From an uncultured Chloroflexia bacterium (lineage in GTDB: Bacteria; Chloroflexota; Limnocylindria; Limnocylindrales; CSP1-4), in contig CAVQRP010000007.1 of assembly GCA_963715295.1 (NCBI GenBank), forward strand, positions 37,330 to 101,329: 64,000 nucleotides of DNA. The letters are read 5' to 3'. The translations under genes were made by a program, and so were the position numbers. The first letter of the stretch is position 1, and every line of letters begins with the position of its first letter. The notes under the pieces are model-generated. The model was not told the DNA's origin, made no database searches, and was given only the letters and a program-made list of their open reading frames with translations. Below, piece after piece: positions 1 through 50,546 of the stretch.

Positions 1-720
1 GAGAACCTGTGGCTCTTCGGCCGCCTCTACCAGCTGCCTTCGGTGGAAGCGAAGCGCCGCGCCAGCGACCTGCTGGAGCAGTTCGACCTTGTCGATGCCG
101 CTGACCGCACCATCAAGACCTACTCGGGCGGCATGCGCCGCCGCCTGGACCTCGCCAGCGCCATCATCGGCCGGCCGCGCCTGTTCATCCTGGATGAGCC
201 GACCACGGGCCTCGATCCGCGCAGCCGCCTGGGCATGTGGGAGGTCATCCGCGGCCTGGTCAAGGAAGGCACCACGCTCTTGCTCACGACCCAGTATCTC
301 GAGGAGGCGGACGAGCTGGCCGACACCATCGCCGTCGTGGACCACGGCAAGATCATCGCCGAGGGCACGGCCAGAGAGCTCAAGCGACAGATCGGCGGCG
401 AACGCATCGAGGTCCATCTCCATCGCACTGAGGACATCCCCTTCGTGGAGGCGGTGCTGGCGCGACACGGTGAGGGTGACATCACCGTCGAGGAGGCCAC
501 GCGTCACGTCAGCATCGCCGCCGGAGGTGGAGCCGAGCGCCTCTTCGGTGTCTTCCGCGAGCTGGACGAGGCCAAGATCGCCGTCGATGACATCGGCCTG
601 CGACGTCCTACGCTCGACGACGTCTTCCTCACGCTCACCGGCCACGTCGCCGAGGAGGCCAGCGACGAGGATACGGCGCACGTCATCCATGCCGAGGACA
701 TCGAGGAAGTAGCCAGATGA
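1..720 (+). CDS. ABC transporter ATP-binding protein (DrrA-like), 5' end truncated by window edge
   Basis: Open frame from base 1. Signature LSGGMRRRL, Walker B LFILDEPTTGLD, and a C-terminal DrrA-like domain. Followed by an ABC-2 permease. Confidence 0.85.
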   Translation, partial: ENLWLFGRLYQLPSVEAKRRASDLLEQFDLVDAADRTIKTYSGGMRRRLDLASAIIGRPRLFILDEPTTGLDPRSRLGMWEVIRGLVKEGTTLLLTTQYLEEADELADTIAVVDHGKIIAEGTARELKRQIGGERIEVHLHRTEDIPFVEAVLARHGEGDITVEEATRHVSIAAGGGAERLFGVFRELDEAKIAVDDIGLRRPTLDDVFLTLTGHVAEEASDEDTAHVIHAEDIEEVAR

Positions 721-43257: not shown

Positions 43258-43635
43258 ATGTCCTTCCTTCGCAGCCTGATGGGCGGCGGTGTCCCCGCCG
43301 TGACCGTGCAGCAAGCCGCCGAGATGCAAGGCACCGATGGCGTCGGCGCCCTGATCATCGACGTGCGCGAGCCCAACGAATACACGCAGATCCGCGCCAA
43401 GGGTGCCGTGCTGCTGCCGCTGGGCCGCCTCAACAGCTTCGTCAAGGAGCTGCCTCGCGACCGCGAGCTGCTGATGATGTGCCGTACCGGTGGCCGCAGC
43501 CAGAACGCGACCCAGTTCCTGCAGGCGCAGGGGTTCGAGAACGTGACCAACGTCAGCGGCGGCATCGTGGCCTGGCACGCCGCCGGCTTGCCCACCACCT
43601 CGGGCGATCCAGAGCCGGGCGAAGGCGCCTTCTAG
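43258..43635 (+). CDS. Rhodanese-like sulfurtransferase domain protein
   Basis: Active-site loop CRTGGRS. Start lies 2 nt after the DUF2203 stop. Confidence 0.85.
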   Translation: MSFLRSLMGGGVPAVTVQQAAEMQGTDGVGALIIDVREPNEYTQIRAKGAVLLPLGRLNSFVKELPRDRELLMMCRTGGRSQNATQFLQAQGFENVTNVSGGIVAWHAAGLPTTSGDPEPGEGAF

Positions 43636-45426: not shown

Positions 45427-46620
45427 CTAGCCCTGGATCACGATGTTGCCGTGCATGGTCGTGTAGTGACCCGGCACCGTGCAGGCGAACTGCAGGTTGG
45501 CGCCATCCTCCGGCACCGTCCAGGTGATGGTCTGCTCACCGCTCTGCCAGGTCGGGATGCCGTCGTCCGTCTCGGCATTGGGTGTGCTTAGTGCGTCCGC
45601 TGCTCCGATCCAGAAGTTGTGGTCGAAGCCAGCCACGTTGTCGACGACGAACTCGATGGTCTCGCCGGGCACCACGTCGATCTGTGGGACGACGGCGCCC
45701 GACTCATCGGTGAACTGCAGGTTGGACGTGGCCTGGAGGCGGATCACACGCGGCGCATCGGTGGACCCGCCATCGATGGCCACCGGCGTGGCAGCGGGGT
45801 CGACCGGTGGTGGCGTAGCGGCCGTGGCATCACCGCCGCCGCTGACACCACCGGGGTTCTTCCAGCAGTCAGGCACGGGCGTGTCCTCGGGGCCGGGCTG
45901 CCAGTTCGGATCACGCCAGCCAGCGACCTGCTCCGGCGGCGGGGCCTCTGCCGCCGCTTCGCCATGCGACGCCGGCGCGTGTTCGAAGATGATGTCGTTG
46001 CTCGCATTCAGCCAGACGATGAGCTCCTCGACCTGGCGATAGTTGAGCGGGCCGTTGGGCTGCAGCCAGGGCGCCATCAGGCTGTTGGGGTCGCCACACA
46101 CGTAGCGGCCGCCGACGGTGAGCACGTTCTCGAGGTAGCCGGGGTTGAGGTGACCCGTCCCGGAATCGCCCGCAGGCGTGAGCACGTTGTACAGCTTGGC
46201 CTGGTCGTTGAGTCGCGGGCCGATCCCACCCTGGCCTTCAGCGCCGTGGCAGGTGGCGCAGTTGGCGATGTAGAGCTCGTAGCCGCGCGCGACATCGGTG
46301 ACGTACTGGGCGTCGGCCTCCGCCGCCAGGCGGCCCTCGGTGCCGAGGGCCGGCACGCCGCTTTCGTAGAACCAGTAGACCGGGATGAAGAGCGCCACGA
46401 CCAGGATGGCCAGGAAGACCACGTTGCGAGCGTTGGCGCTTTGGCGAACGATCTGCGCGGAGCGCTCCTCGGTCAGCTCGACGCTGTGCGCGCGTGGCCC
46501 GGCGGAGAAGCGCTCGACGTCGCGGCTCTCACCCTCGACCGGGACCAGGGGCGATTCCGGCCGTCCGACCTCGTCAGACCCCCGGGGCGCGAGCTCCTTG
46601 CCGCCCTTGTCCTCGCTCAT
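45427..46620 (-). CDS. Membrane-anchored cytochrome c - cupredoxin (type-1 copper) fusion protein
   Basis: TM helix, CATCHG haem c motif, then a plastocyanin-like site HNFW ... CTVPGHYTTMHG (His, Cys, His, Met ligands). Confidence 0.8.
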   Translation of the reverse strand: MSEDKGGKELAPRGSDEVGRPESPLVPVEGESRDVERFSAGPRAHSVELTEERSAQIVRQSANARNVVFLAILVVALFIPVYWFYESGVPALGTEGRLAAEADAQYVTDVARGYELYIANCATCHGAEGQGGIGPRLNDQAKLYNVLTPAGDSGTGHLNPGYLENVLTVGGRYVCGDPNSLMAPWLQPNGPLNYRQVEELIVWLNASNDIIFEHAPASHGEAAAEAPPPEQVAGWRDPNWQPGPEDTPVPDCWKNPGGVSGGGDATAATPPPVDPAATPVAIDGGSTDAPRVIRLQATSNLQFTDESGAVVPQIDVVPGETIEFVVDNVAGFDHNFWIGAADALSTPNAETDDGIPTWQSGEQTITWTVPEDGANLQFACTVPGHYTTMHGNIVIQG

Positions 46621-47285
46621 ATGCAGCCCGTCGGCGACTTGGCCGGGATGAGACCAGGCTGGCCCAGCGCCACCGGCAGCGAGCCGAGCGAGATCGTGCT
46701 GGTATCGACGACGAGCTGACCATCCTGCACGCTATGCGGGAAGCGATCGAGACCGCGCGGCGCAGGGCCCAGCTCCTTGACCTTGGTGCCCAAGCGGTCG
46801 TAGCGCGAACCGTGGCAGGGGCATTCGAACCAGTAGTTCGACTCGCAGAAGTTGGGCTTGCAGCCCAGGTGTGGGCACTTCTGGTACATCGTCCACACGT
46901 TGGTGACGTCGCCCTTGCCGTCAGACGACTCACCGTTCAGGAAGCCCAGGTTGGGGTCCTGGAGGACGACGAAGGTGCGTGCGGCGGGGAAGTACGAGGG
47001 CGCACCGTCCTTGAGCGTGAGACCCGCGACCTCCGGGTTATCGGAGACGGTCTGGAAGTCGCCCAGGTTGATCTGGCCACCGAAGCCGCGGGCAAGGTTG
47101 GGCCAGAGGAAGCCCAGGGTGCCGGCACCGACCTCGAGCAGCCATAGCGCGACCGCCGCACCGATGGAGCGACGGATAAGCTGCCGACGCGTCAAGCCAC
47201 CGGTCCTGCCGCTGCGCATCTCACGCAGGACGGGCTCGGTCAGTGCTCCGGGCTCTTGCGAACGAGTCAGCTTCCAGTTGCCCAT
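46617..47285 (-). CDS. Rieske [2Fe-2S] subunit of cytochrome bc/b6f-type complex
   Basis: Tat motif RRQLIRRS plus CPHLGC...CPCHGS cluster boxes. Confidence 0.9.
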   Translation of the reverse strand: MGNWKLTRSQEPGALTEPVLREMRSGRTGGLTRRQLIRRSIGAAVALWLLEVGAGTLGFLWPNLARGFGGQINLGDFQTVSDNPEVAGLTLKDGAPSYFPAARTFVVLQDPNLGFLNGESSDGKGDVTNVWTMYQKCPHLGCKPNFCESNYWFECPCHGSRYDRLGTKVKELGPAPRGLDRFPHSVQDGQLVVDTSTISLGSLPVALGQPGLIPAKSPTGCI

Positions 47286-47292
47286 CGTGCCC

Positions 47293-47934
47293 CTACAGTG
47301 CGAAGAAGAAGCCCTCCCACGGCATCGTCCAGGCGTAGCCCGGGCCGCGGAAGAAGGCGCCCAAGAAGGTGATGGTCAGGCCAGCACCCATGATGATGGT
47401 GAAGAGCATCACGCTGGTCTTGCGGTCGGACGGACGAGGCGAGCCGCCGTCGCCCCGGGGGCCGCGATCGATGAACGGGATCAGTGCCGCACCCACGAGG
47501 ATGACCGTCGGGGCCAGTACGCCGGCGACGGTGGGGTGGAAGTAGGCCAGCAGCTCCTGCAGGCCCACGAAGTACCAGGGTGCCTTGGCCACGGCGGGAG
47601 TGACGTTGCCGTTGGCCAGCTCCTCCAGCGGCGCGTTGATGAAGATGCCCATGAGGATCAGGAAGATGCTCATCATGGCCGCGGCGAAGAACTCGATCGA
47701 GAGCAGGTGCGGCCACGTCATGACCGTATCGTCCGGTTCCTTCTGGACGCGGACGACGGCGTCCTGTTTGACCAGGGCCAGCAGCCGGTAGGGCTTGGCG
47801 GCCATGGGCACGCGCTGCTTGTCGATCTCCGTCGTGCGCCGCTCCGGCGGCGACGCAGGCAGCGTGCTCCGTCGCTCCGGCGTTGACGTCGGGGCTGAGG
47901 CGGGGACCTGGGGGTGCTTGGTCTCTTCGCTCAT
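47293..47934 (-). CDS. Cytochrome b C-terminal-domain subunit (subunit IV / PetD-like)
   Basis: Three TM helices and a PEWY-like region (APWYFVGLQELL). Confidence 0.8.
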   Translation of the reverse strand: MSEETKHPQVPASAPTSTPERRSTLPASPPERRTTEIDKQRVPMAAKPYRLLALVKQDAVVRVQKEPDDTVMTWPHLLSIEFFAAAMMSIFLILMGIFINAPLEELANGNVTPAVAKAPWYFVGLQELLAYFHPTVAGVLAPTVILVGAALIPFIDRGPRGDGGSPRPSDRKTSVMLFTIIMGAGLTITFLGAFFRGPGYAWTMPWEGFFFAL

Positions 47935-47949: not shown

Positions 47950-48678
47950 CTACAGCGGACCGCTGATACCTCCGTCCTTGCGAATGCGCCAGAAGTGCAC
48001 GGCCAGGAACAGGGCCGCCACCAGCGGCATGAGGATCACGTGCAGGACGTAGAAGCGTAGGAGGGTGTTCTGACCCACCTCGATGCCACCCAGCAGCAGC
48101 AGCTGGCTGGGCGTGTTGAACAGCGGCGCGAAGGTGGCCATGTTGGTGCCGATGGTGATGGCCCAGAAGGCGATCTGGTCCCACGGCAGCAGGTAGCCGG
48201 TGAAGGAGAGGAAGACGGTCAGCAACAGCAGCACCACGCCGACCACCCAGTTGAACTCACGCGGTGGCTTGTAGGCGCCGTGGTAGAAGACACGCATCAT
48301 GTGCAGGAAGACGAAGAACACCATCAGGTGGGCGGCCCATCGGTGGATGTTGCGAGCCAGCAACCCGAAGGGAACCTCTGCCTGGATGCGCAGGATGTCC
48401 GAGTAGGCCTGGGTGGCCGAGGGCACATAGAAGAACATCAGGTAGACGCCCGTCACGGTCAGCACCAGGAAGAAGAAGAAGGAGAGCCCGCCCAGGCAGA
48501 AGGTATAGGCGAACTTGACCGCGTGCTGCCGCACTCGCACCGGGTGCAGGTGCAGGAACACGTTGTTCATCACGGCCATGGCGCGCGATCGCTCGTCGTT
48601 GGGGTAGGGCTGTCGGAAGATCGACCGGAACGCCGCGCTACGGCGGATCGACTGATCGACGCGCTCGAGGAAGCTCAA
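47950..48678 (-). CDS. Cytochrome b6-like subunit (N-terminal four-helix haem b domain, PetB/QcrB-like)
   Basis: Haem-ligand His pairs in helices B and D (HLHP...H and [16 protein letters not shown]). TTG start overlaps the upstream stop. Confidence 0.9.
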
Positions 48679-50546
48679 CGCCGTGTCACCGTCATCGAGG
48701 AATGACCCCCTGCCTCTGCCTGGTTACCGACACCAGCCAAGCCCAGCTGGGTGTCCCGGTACGACTCCTTGTAGAGCCTACCGTCCTCACTGATCTCCTG
48801 CATCTCGAAGCGTTCCATGGTGATGGCATCGTAGGGGCAACGCTTCACGCAAAGCGCACAGCGGATGCAACGTTCCTCGTCGAGGACCATGGCCGCGCCC
48901 TGGGTCCAGCCGTAGCCGTCGACCAGCTCGGGCAGCGCTCCCTCGGATCTCATCTGGTTCACGTCGATCATGTGGATGACGCCTTCGGGGCACACGTCCG
49001 CACAGGCGCCGCAAAGCACGCAGCGGAAACCATCGAACCAGATGTTGTAGTTGCACATCAGGCAGCGCGTGGACTCGGTGACGGCCTGGTCGGTGGTGTA
49101 GCCCAGCTCGGAGATGGTGCTGAAGTTCACCTTGGGGTCAGCCGAAGGCAGGCGCGCGTCCACTGGCAGGACGGGGATGTGCTGACGCGGCAGGACGTCA
49201 TACAGCTCGGGCATGTCGTGGCGCCAGGAGCTGACGATGCGCACGTTGGCGTCCACCGCCACCGTCGAGCGACCCGACAGGTAGCGGTCGATGGCATAGG
49301 CGCACTTCTTGCCGTGGCCGGCCGATTCGATGAGCGTCGTGGGGCCGGTCACGAAGTCGCCGCAGGCGAAGACGCCGCGCACGTTGGTGGCGTAGGTGCC
49401 GGGATCGACACGCATGCGGCCACGATTGATCTGGAAGCTGGCATCGACGGGCAGGAACGTGTTGTCGGCGGCCTGGCTGACCGCGGGGATGACGGTCTGC
49501 GCCGGCACCACGTACTCGGAACCCTCGATGGGCACCGGGCGGCGGCGACCGCTGGCGTCAGGCTCGCCCAGCTTGTTGCGCACGAACCGGACGCCGCTGA
49601 TGTTGCCGTTCTCATCCCCGATGATCTCCACCGGACTGACGAGGAACTCCATGCTCACACCTTCGCGCTCGGTCTCGCCCAGCTCCTCCTCGTCCACGAC
49701 CAGCTCGGAGCGCGTGCGGCGGTAGGCGATGGTGACGTTCCTGGCGCCGTGCCGCAGGCTCGTACGCGAGCAGTCCATGGCCGTGTAGCCGCCGCCGATG
49801 ATGACGACGTCGGTGCCGACCGCGACCTCCTCACCGAGGTTGGCGCGCTTCATGAAGTCGACGCCGTACTGGATGCCGTTGAGATCGTTGCCGGGGACGT
49901 CGAGTGGCACCGCGTTCATGGCGCCGGCGCAGATGGCCACCGCGTCGTACTGCGCCTGCAGCTCCTCGAAGGTGATGTCGCGTCCCACGCGGACGTTGAA
50001 GCGGAACTCCACCCCCAGGCGCTCGACGAGCCGGAAGTCCATCTCGATGGCTTCGCGCGGAAGACGGAACGCCGGCACGCCCACCAGCAGCGTGCCGCCG
50101 GCCATGGGCAGCTCGTCGAAGACGGTGACCTGGTGGCCGGCCACGGCCAGCTCGCGCGCGACCGCCAGGCCGGCGGGCCCGGCACCCACGACCGCCACGC
50201 TGGTGTCGCGGGGGGTGATGAGCGGCATCTCGTCGGGGATGCCCGACTGGGCGTGCCATTCGACGAGGAAGCGCTTCATCGCGCGGATGGCCAGGGGCCG
50301 ATCGATGTCGCCACGCCGGCAGGCGCGTTCGCACGGTGCCGAGCACACGTAGGCGCACATGGCGGCGACCGGGTTGGGTTCACGCGAGAGGATGTAGCCC
50401 TCCTCGAAGCGACCCTCCGCCGCGAGGTTCAGGTAGCCGCGACAGTTGGTGCCCACCGGACACGCTTCCTGGCACTCGATGTTGCACTGCAGCCAGGACG
50501 CGTCCACAGGCTGGACGAGGAACTCCTGGCCGGTGTCGATGACCAC
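48675..50546 (-). CDS. GltD-like NAD(P)H-dependent FeS flavoprotein with extra C-terminal 2x[4Fe-4S] ferredoxin domain
   Basis: N-terminal Cys clusters, FAD and NAD(P) Rossmann motifs ([26 protein letters not shown]), and C-terminal CLMCNYN...[12 protein letters not shown] and [12 protein letters not shown]. Confidence 0.8.

Follow-up and report, generated by a model that had tools for sequence, protein, structure and literature searches.

Respiratory chains differ most in the way electrons leave the quinol-oxidising complex. In the known cases, they pass to a cytochrome c, which is either soluble or anchored, to a blue copper protein that is a separate molecule, or to a second haem fused onto this complex. 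Built-in or tethered carriers include the dihaem QcrC of actinobacterial III2IV2, the cytochrome c fused to caa3 subunit II, and the anchored cytochrome cy; to our knowledge, in none of these three is a type-1 copper cupredoxin linked to haem c on the side of complex III. Sulfocyanin SoxE in the SoxM complex of Sulfolobus is a comparable type-1 copper case. Further related systems have been described: auracyanin is the acceptor of Alternative Complex III (ACIII; PMC10873879), halocyanin of Haloarchaea is encoded together with a split-b Rieske/cytochrome b complex and has been proposed as its acceptor and as oxidase donor (PMC3509893), and three- and four-domain copper nitrite reductases carry a tethered cytochrome c and/or cupredoxin (PMC13324648 and PMC6278305), with a NirK variant in Chloroflexi (PMC8756737). 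PMC12954380 additionally describes two NAD(P)-oxidoreductase-containing Rieske/cytochrome b complexes of the anaerobic ammonium-oxidising (anammox) bacterium Kuenenia stuttgartiensis, Kuste4569–4574 and Kustd1480–1485, for which quinol bifurcation to NAD(P)H was proposed. Here, we describe another solution, in which haem c and a blue copper carrier are predicted to share a single membrane-anchored chain whose flexible tethers carry between one and three copper modules. It is encoded by a gene at 45427–46620 of a 64,000-nucleotide stretch of contig CAVQRP010000007.1 from an uncultured Chloroflexia bacterium; this whole stretch is referred to as the window.

According to the list of open reading frames (ORFs), the gene is read from the minus strand as an unbroken ORF with 397 codons and a stop, and the plus-strand translation of the same interval is interrupted by a stop. 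Long antisense ORFs in this region (e.g., 45619–46719, plus strand) are probably the usual by-product of a G+C content of 69%. A preliminary description of the locus had read the product as one polypeptide with a mono-haem cytochrome c domain and a complete type-1 copper cupredoxin, and the intact ORF, Pfam profiles, and Foldseek matches all bear this out. The N-terminal membrane anchor placed before CATCHG was likewise recovered, as a single hydrophobic segment (residues 61–89) that precedes Cys121-x2-Cys124-His125. In the translation, the haem motif lies in the string IANCATCHGAEG (Cys121, Cys124, and His125), the first copper ligand His334 in the string VAGFDHNFWIG, and the remaining ligands Cys380, His385, and Met389 in the C-terminal string LQFACTVPGHYTTMHGNIVIQG. 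Regarding the copper site, the earlier assignment of the histidine in GFDHNFW and of the three ligands in FACTVPGHYTTMHG was correct, but their spacing is Cys-x4-His-x3-Met and not His-x4-Met. The start codon ATG (46620–46618) overlaps the stop codon TGA of the Rieske gene (46619–46617) as ATGA, just as had been noted before, and through this overlap the fusion gene is predicted to be translationally coupled to the Rieske gene.

Several approaches agree on the nature of the C-terminal domain. Residues 281–397 were modelled by AlphaFold2 (AF2) with predicted local distance difference test (pLDDT) values of mostly 81–96, given as means of 10-residue blocks. A Foldseek search against the PDB returned auracyanin A (2aan; E = 7.7e-7) first and auracyanin B (1qhq) second, followed by azurins, plastocyanins, and rusticyanin; the top matches reached E-values of about 1e-6 and a probability of 1.00. 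Auracyanin A was also the best phmmer match in the PDB (E = 2.9e-4), with approximately 24% identity to auracyanins. A scan of the full-length protein at E ≤ 0.01 gave no cupredoxin match; the isolated C-terminal domain scored above the cut-off of PF00127, Copper-bind (25.6 vs. 21.2 bits; E = 1.7e-5), and precomputed PF00127 matches exist for several orthologues. At the level of individual residues, fdHNFw (His334) aligns with vqHNWv of auracyanin B, and the loop CTVPGHYTTM aligns residue for residue with CTVPGHYPLM of auracyanin A and could also be aligned to the ligand loops of auracyanin B and azurin. All four ligands are thus present on alignment; the lack of one of them would, following the preliminary description, have argued against its reading of the locus. 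Fold, ligands, and profile score all agree with the definition of a type-1 copper cupredoxin of the plastocyanin/azurin family, which we predict this domain to be. It is properly named auracyanin-like and not auracyanin, because it forms one protein with a cytochrome c and its gene belongs to a Rieske/b6 operon.

The haem domain was recognized in the full-length scan by PF13442 (29.1 vs. 27 bits) and PF00034 (28.1 vs. 21.3 bits), and hence both Pfam assignments that the preliminary description had put forward for checking, cytochrome c and Copper-bind, were obtained above their cut-offs. In orthologues, the corresponding hidden Markov models cover residues 109–203, or nearly the whole PF00034 model. 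The protein contains a single CXXCH. Its haem region is weakly similar to that of actinobacterial QcrC, and its cytochrome matches were confined to generic class I and QcrC-like ones, with no cytochrome c1/f family or structure among them. In function, the protein would correspond to c1/f in the way that the c subunits found in Actinobacteria or Thermus do, and it is not a homologue of c1/f. AF2 placed a helix at residues 51–87, and the N side of the transmembrane segment is flanked by an Arg/Asn-rich stretch. With one N-terminal helix, both the haem and the copper domain would be located outside the membrane, and we infer the positive (P) side from topology rules and from the fact that haem c has to mature outside the cytoplasm.

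A protein identical to that of the window (100%; P0001) is present in a public collection, and more than 1300 homologues were found at E ≤ 1e-3. NCBI lists homologues under the name 'c-type cytochrome', and the automatic names of the Joint Genome Institute (JGI) comprise both 'cupredoxin-like copper-binding protein' and 'mono/diheme cytochrome c family protein'. In a scan of one genome per species, 197 loci encode a homologue of the fusion; all but one bear Chloroflexota names, many of them Candidatus Limnocylindrales. One complete operon (L052) was deposited as 'Candidatus Sulfotelmatobacter sp.' (Acidobacteriota) and is probably a mis-binned Chloroflexota contig. For conservation analysis, the window protein was aligned with 73 full-length species-level orthologues (74 sequences). 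Cys121, Cys124, His125, Cys175, Met182, Cys252, His334, Cys380, and Met389 are invariant in all 74, and His385 is found in 71 of the aligned columns, the other three sequences having a shorter C-x2-H-x2-M loop that still keeps the histidine. Judging from this alignment, conservation of the haem and copper motifs across the family is far beyond chance. Met182 is probably the sixth (axial) haem ligand, since it is invariant and lies inside the C-terminal part of the region covered by PF13442/PF00034 in orthologues; bis-His ligation may be possible via His157, which is likewise highly conserved.

Conservation extends beyond the two cofactor sites. Two invariant cysteines lie outside the haem motif, namely Cys175 in the haem domain (RYVCGD; 46096–46098, minus strand) and Cys252 in the CW segment (45865–45867, minus strand), which may form a disulfide and perhaps fasten the beginning of the tether to the haem domain in this way. 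On the cytoplasmic side, the segment VERFSAGPRAHSVELTEERSAQIVRQSANARN (residues 31–65; 46426–46530, minus strand) is conserved to the same degree as the haem domain, with a mean column conservation of 0.75 for both over the 74 sequences, and belongs to no matched family; a Pfam scan of the fusion protein returned no match for the N-terminal extension. Invariant positions within the extension are R37, F38, P42, L49–E51, R53, V58–S61, and R65. The segment may contact the face of the complex on the negative (N) side or the NfnB-like subunit encoded in the same operon.

The haem and cupredoxin domains are separated by about 80 residues, including a tether whose length varies between 19 and 41 residues across species (median 27) and which consists to 78% of G, A, T, P, and S. 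At roughly 3.5 Å per residue, we estimate that the extended tether would reach about 7–14 nm. A short intramolecular wire, as originally envisaged, with a fixed haem–Cu distance is unlikely given this spacing with its poorly conserved, disordered tether. A swinging, tethered carrier fits better than a rigid wire, as indicated by the composition, disorder, and variability of the tether and by the variable number of copper modules.

This number ranges from one to three. Orthologues of about 550 amino acids contain two tandem cupredoxins, and one of 723 amino acids contains three; each domain has the full set of ligands, and the spacers are acidic or of low complexity and comprise about 40–50 residues. 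Two cupredoxins are encoded at loci L005, L007, L010, and L020 and three at L013, and proteins of this kind include P0002, P0005, P0007, and P0015. Some second domains carry an auracyanin B-like loop (CTxPGHYAAGM; C-x4-H-x4-M). The metagenome-assembled genome MFD09964.bin.2.136 contains two complete six-gene operons (L005 and L023), one with a single and one with a double cupredoxin. Furthermore, we could identify a sister group (L078, L079, L080, P0136, and P0182) that shares the operon and the haem module (about 45–50% identity) but whose C-terminal domain is a Cupredoxin_1 domain (PF13473; 3.8e-13) with the loop CxVHPNM and no detectable pairwise similarity to the window cupredoxin (E = 0.48). 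The pairing of haem c and type-1 copper is thus predicted to have been kept through a domain replacement, and it appears to have been selected at least twice, because the sister group joins the same haem module to an unrelated Cupredoxin_1-type domain. The module also occurs in one to three copies in stand-alone proteins (P0223, P0240, P0247, P0251, P0138, P0150, and P0130), which are 45–50% identical to residues 265–395 and several of which have lipoprotein-like signal/Cys N-termini. In P0130, one domain has degenerate ligands (STVPCLYYTM). Stand-alone homologues with one to three domains are as expected for a carrier module, and the variation within the family as a whole points to such a role.

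For comparison of the genomic context, 80 of the 197 loci were fetched with 10 kb on either side of each gene. In every locus with a sufficiently long contig, the gene order is NfnB/GltD-like protein, cytochrome b6, subunit IV, Rieske protein, fusion, and Kelch protein (present in 69, 73, 77, 79, 80, and 77 loci, respectively, with absences due to truncated contigs). Gaps between the six genes of the window operon are −4, 15, 7, −4, and 15 bases, and its flanks encode unrelated functions, i.e., a rhodanese, an aminotransferase, a shikimate kinase, a PIG-L deacetylase, and a peroxiredoxin. The rhodanese gene encodes a small single-domain protein (43258–43635, plus strand; PF00581, 4.5e-17) and lies on the opposite strand, about 280 bases beyond the last gene of the operon. 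All features are compiled in the table.

Table. Features of the cytochrome c–cupredoxin fusion and of its operon, with positions in the window.
Feature	Residues	Position	Strand	Basis or remark
Whole gene, membrane-anchored cytochrome c–cupredoxin fusion		45427..46620	−	ORF list; 397 amino acids plus stop
Cytoplasmic N-terminal extension	1–60	46441..46620	−	Residues 31–65 (VERFSAGPRAH..LTEERSAQIVRQSANARN) highly conserved
Single transmembrane helix, predicted signal-anchor, N-in/C-out	66–86	46363..46425	−	Kyte-Doolittle segment 61–89
Class I c-type cytochrome domain	100–212	45985..46323	−	PF13442 and PF00034 above gathering cut-offs
Haem-binding motif Cys121-Ala-Thr-Cys124-His125	121–125	46246..46260	−	Regular expression; invariant 74/74
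Met182, SLMxxW...LNYRQVEELIxW segment	182	46075..46077	−	Invariant 74/74
Variable stretch	213–233			Between haem domain and Trp/Pro-rich segment
Trp/Pro-rich segment GWRDPxWxPxPxxTPxPxCWxxP	234–256	45853..45921	−	Conservation 0.75 vs. 0.40–0.42 in flanks
Low-complexity flexible tether	257–289	45754..45852	−	pLDDT below 50; conservation 0.42
Predicted type-1 copper cupredoxin domain, auracyanin-like	290–397	45430..45753	−	AF2, Foldseek, PF00127, phmmer
His334, first copper ligand (FDHNF)	334	45619..45621	−	Invariant 74/74
Copper loop Cys380-Thr-Val-Pro-Gly-His385-Tyr-Thr-Thr-Met389	380–389	45454..45483	−	Regular expression
Soluble NfnB/GltD-like NAD(P)H-FAD protein, 623 amino acids		48675..50546	−	Pfam and NCBIfam; first gene; stop overlaps b6 start
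Cytochrome b6-type subunit		47950..48678	−	PF00033, 2.6e-46
Subunit IV-like (cytochrome b C-terminal) membrane protein		47293..47934	−	PF00032; ExtQ-like, 2.3e-12
Rieske [2Fe-2S] subunit, twin-arginine (TAT) signal LTRRQLIRRS, box II CPCHGSRY		46617..47285	−	PF00355
Kelch beta-propeller membrane protein, 497 amino acids		43918..45411	−	Pfam Kelch families; directly downstream of fusion

The partner subunits set this operon apart from that of a plain bc complex. The NfnB-like protein has a Fer4_20 domain at its N-terminus and a 2x[4Fe-4S] ferredoxin domain at its C-terminus, amounting to four predicted [4Fe-4S] sites, and its PDB matches are NfnA (9n5u; 1.1e-110), 9bov/9bp5, 8oh5, NfnI (5jca), and FwdF (5t5i); a hydropathy scan revealed no hydrophobic segment. 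Cytochrome b6 is closest to b6 of the b6f complex (5.2e-52), with tfCLGG aligned to fyCLGG, and the CLGG cysteine, to which haem ci/cn is covalently attached in b6f, is retained. Since it scores 292.8 against a cut-off of 290 bits on the NCBIfam equivalog 'selenite/tellurite reduction operon cytochrome ExtP', it would probably be misnamed ExtP by automatic annotation. Subunit IV has hydrophobic segments at about residues 75–107, 128–157, and 173–195. The best PDB matches of the Rieske protein are Kustd1480 (9rk3; 1.3e-14) and Kuste4569 (9rk4; 5.9e-12), compared to 3.6e-8 for Rieske proteins of b6f, and its CPCHGSRY box contains the Ser/Tyr pair linked to high potential. In the Kelch protein, two transmembrane segments (25–54 and 446–472) flank the propeller, conserved residues are only structural apart from the Cys pair C72/C81, and a regular-expression search of the reading frame found no CXXCH. 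As it has no conserved His/Cys/Tyr metal cluster, the Kelch protein was rejected as an unlikely redox partner; a role as scaffold or accessory subunit is more likely than one as acceptor. With the NfnB-like gene at 48675–50546, the whole operon may represent a non-anammox member of the NAD(P) reductase Rieske/cytochrome b class. Taken from the encoded subunits, the parent complex of the fusion protein may belong to this unusual NAD(P)-linked class, with the multihaem cytochromes replaced by the monohaem–copper fusion.

A relay from haem to copper out of the complex is the natural reading of one polypeptide that carries both haem c and a cupredoxin and whose gene is coupled to its neighbour inside a Rieske/cytochrome b operon. 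In this respect, the preliminary description, which suggested an electron wire from a bc complex, is supported, but the complex is of the b6 type with an NfnB-like gene and not a plain bc complex. We consider it rather probable that the fusion is the P-side electron-output subunit of a b6-type Rieske/cytochrome b complex, i.e., an equivalent of c1/f with a built-in carrier. Quinol would be oxidised at the Qo site, the Rieske cluster would reduce the membrane-anchored haem c domain (His125/Met182), and haem c would in turn reduce the type-1 copper of the tethered auracyanin-like cupredoxin. The reduced cupredoxin could then swing to a nearby acceptor, most probably the CuA/haem site of a terminal oxidase, or another P-side reductase. 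The fusion would hold the carrier at the membrane in a 1:1 stoichiometry, which would be useful in Chloroflexota because they are generally regarded as having no closed periplasm. This proposal is founded on what the analysis establishes, namely which domains are present, how their ligands are conserved, the fold, the linkage in the operon, and the properties of the tether. From these we infer the topology, the order from Rieske cluster to haem to copper, which way the electrons flow, and which acceptor they reach. Some observations weigh against such an assignment. The haem domain was poorly modelled by AF2, with pLDDT values of 40–65 in the full-length model and a mean of 37 when it was modelled alone (residues 88–262, 32 sequences), which is too unreliable for a haem–Cu distance or a docking geometry. 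A pure carrier role leaves the strongly conserved cytoplasmic N-terminus unexplained. In a search by regular expression only, neither the window nor the 10-kb surroundings of the 80 loci (1.3 Mb) showed signature motifs of CuA, COX1, or cytochrome bd. In addition, the NfnB-like subunit and the likeness of the Rieske protein to those of anammox complexes indicate that the parent complex possibly differs from a conventional quinol:carrier oxidoreductase.

Alternative explanations concern the reality of the fusion, the role of its copper domain, and the purpose of the complex. That two neighbouring genes were merged by a sequencing error, making the fusion an assembly or gene-calling artefact, could be suspected because the source is a metagenome-assembled genome and because some database homologues are frameshifted (e.g., P0169, P0190, and P0193). 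However, the continuous frame recurs in about 70 species-level genomes that are independent and stem from many projects, the linker varies in length but stays in frame, and conservation at the protein level is seen on either side of it. In the window itself, neither a stop nor a frameshift lies between the domains, although the preliminary description had named such a hidden break as a possible objection. An artefact deserves practically no credence and was rejected on the grounds of the comparative data. The C-terminal domain could also be a copper-handling (CopI-like) or structural cupredoxin, leaving a cytochrome c subunit with an accessory domain, which we regard as highly improbable. The NCBIfam CopI model does match residues 364–395 (E = 8.4e-8), but with 32 bits against a cut-off of 280 bits and only in the copper-loop region, and some natural cupredoxin-fold domains indeed bind no copper. 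Against this, the four type-1 ligands are strictly kept throughout the family, even after the swap to the other cupredoxin type, the domain sequence shows no obvious His/Met-rich tract for copper sequestration, and the operon context is respiratory. Membership in the CopI and rusticyanin families was rejected, as scores were far below the cut-offs and coverage was confined to the copper loop.

More weight has to be given to a complex of the anammox type, linked to NAD(P), in which quinol oxidation is bifurcated and the haem c–copper chain serves as the strongly oxidising outlet or high-potential sink. One electron would then travel uphill via the b haems, haem ci, and four iron–sulfur clusters to the NfnB-like FAD, yielding NAD(P)H; in the reverse case, NAD(P)H would feed the Qi side. 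We judge this to be possible, though unlikely. It would account for the NfnB/GltD-like gene, which comes first, overlaps the b6 start, and is kept in all loci with enough sequence, and for the haem ci cysteine retained in cytochrome b6. The Rieske protein finds its best PDB matches in Kustd1480 and Kuste4569, well before the Rieske proteins of b6f, and shares the Ser/Tyr pair of CPCHGSRY with Kuste4569, for which +303 mV is reported. The flavoprotein matches 9bov/9bp5 and 5t5i are structural homologues that were used for modelling the Kuenenia NAD(P) reductase subunits, and bifurcation has been published as a proposal for such complexes (PMC12954380). That mechanism is itself an unproven proposal, however, and an aerobic heterotroph can obtain NAD(P)H more easily by other routes. 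Furthermore, anammox complexes use multihaem cytochromes and not a monohaem–copper pair, and adjacency of genes is no proof that the flavoprotein physically joins the membrane complex. The anatomy of the output subunit that we favour is compatible with an NAD(P)-linked complex, and the two readings differ only in the purpose of the complex. Electrons might also enter through the cupredoxin, from an extracytoplasmic donor such as Fe(II) or a P-side dehydrogenase, and pass via haem c, possibly in reverse flow to NAD(P)+. The rusticyanin–cytochrome c chain of Acidithiobacillus is an example of such an Fe(II) inlet. Type-1 copper and haem c exchange electrons reversibly, weak similarity to rusticyanin was seen by NCBIfam and Foldseek, and an NAD(P)-binding subunit is encoded in the same operon. 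Nevertheless, we find an inlet very unlikely, as auracyanin and azurin outrank rusticyanin among the matches, the conserved cluster includes no donor enzyme gene, and the Kelch protein has no conserved His/Cys/Tyr metal site. In addition, PMC13212565 describes these lineages as soil, sediment, and freshwater heterotrophs with nitrate-respiratory and terminal-oxidase modules.

As to its wider meaning, the fusion alone is a modest surprise, and its value is increased by the class-wide conservation and by the setting in an anammox-like complex. The architecture is conserved across an uncultured, environmentally abundant class of Chloroflexota from soils, sediments, and fresh water, and it offers a natural system for studying tethered inter-domain electron transfer from haem to copper. 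Automatic names such as 'c-type cytochrome', or 'ExtP' in the case of b6, mask this architecture. The fusion marks a Rieske/cytochrome b6 family with an NfnB-like NAD(P)H module outside anammox bacteria, in which the proposed bifurcation from quinol to NAD(P) could be tested with a simpler P-side partner. In its most far-reaching form, Limnocylindria-type Chloroflexota would run an anammox-like NAD(P)-linked Rieske/b6 complex whose outlet is haem c plus tethered blue copper; the copper branch, ultimately to O2 or nitrate, would drive quinol bifurcation to NAD(P)H, or NAD(P)H would enter the Q cycle directly. This scenario is decidedly speculative and we hold it to be doubtful; if true, NAD(P)-linked chemistry would not be confined to a specialised anaerobe but would extend to common aerobes, in which copper takes the place of the multihaem cytochromes. 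A full-text literature search, whose coverage was incomplete and left most subscription journals outside, found no published description of the fusion subunit, which is apparently undescribed.

Among the known systems compared, a Rieske/cytochrome b complex with both haem c and type-1 copper in its outlet subunit is not seen in auracyanin/ACIII, the halocyanin cluster, QcrC/caa3, or the tethered nitrite reductases. Auracyanins A and B of Chloroflexus and Roseiflexus, from the same phylum, are the best PDB matches of the window cupredoxin in both sequence and structure. The loop CTVPGHYxxM equals that of auracyanin A, and CTxPGHYAAGM of some second domains corresponds to auracyanin B in length. 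Both auracyanins and, as proposed, the fused cupredoxin are held at the membrane and act right after the quinol oxidase. However, auracyanins are separate proteins that are anchored by lipid or by their own helix and have ACIII as partner, whereas the window cupredoxin is fused to a cytochrome c in a Rieske/b6 operon. In the haloarchaeal cluster, the gene of a type-1 copper protein likewise stands alongside a split-b (b6-like) Rieske/cytochrome b complex; halocyanin is described as separate and soluble, with no associated cytochrome c, in contrast to the fusion, where copper follows haem c in one polypeptide. The built-in carriers resemble the fusion in that a domain fixed to a respiratory complex takes the place of a mobile carrier, but the pairs in QcrC- and caa3-type systems are haem c–haem c or haem c–CuA. 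The copper nitrite reductases share the covalent connection of a class I cytochrome c with a type-1 copper cupredoxin, and a tether that shapes electron delivery. They are soluble catalytic enzymes with type-2 copper, unlike the fusion, which has no catalytic domain and belongs to a predicted quinol-oxidising membrane complex.

The remaining comparisons concern the complex as a whole. With ExtOPQ of Geobacter, which are Rieske, cytochrome b, and subunit IV-like proteins (extHIJKLMNOPQS; PMC5877670), the window operon has in common that its b6 passes the ExtP cut-off and its subunit IV matches ExtQ. The Geobacter system differs by its multihaem cytochromes, porin-like protein, and rhodanese, and it has no cupredoxin and no listed NfnB-like gene (PMC5877670). 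Likeness to the anammox complexes comprises an NfnB-like NAD(P) reductase with four predicted Fe–S clusters, b6, subunit IV, a Rieske protein, and the haem ci cysteine. Among solved structures, the window Rieske protein is closest to Kustd1480 and Kuste4569, and the window flavoprotein shares its domain make-up with the NAD(P) reductase subunits of these complexes and has the PDB homologues given for Kuste4570. On the P side, anammox complexes have hexa- or octahaem cytochromes c and an HAO-like protein, whereas the window operon encodes the monohaem–cupredoxin fusion and a Kelch protein, and the fusion operon is found in organisms from oxic soils and waters.

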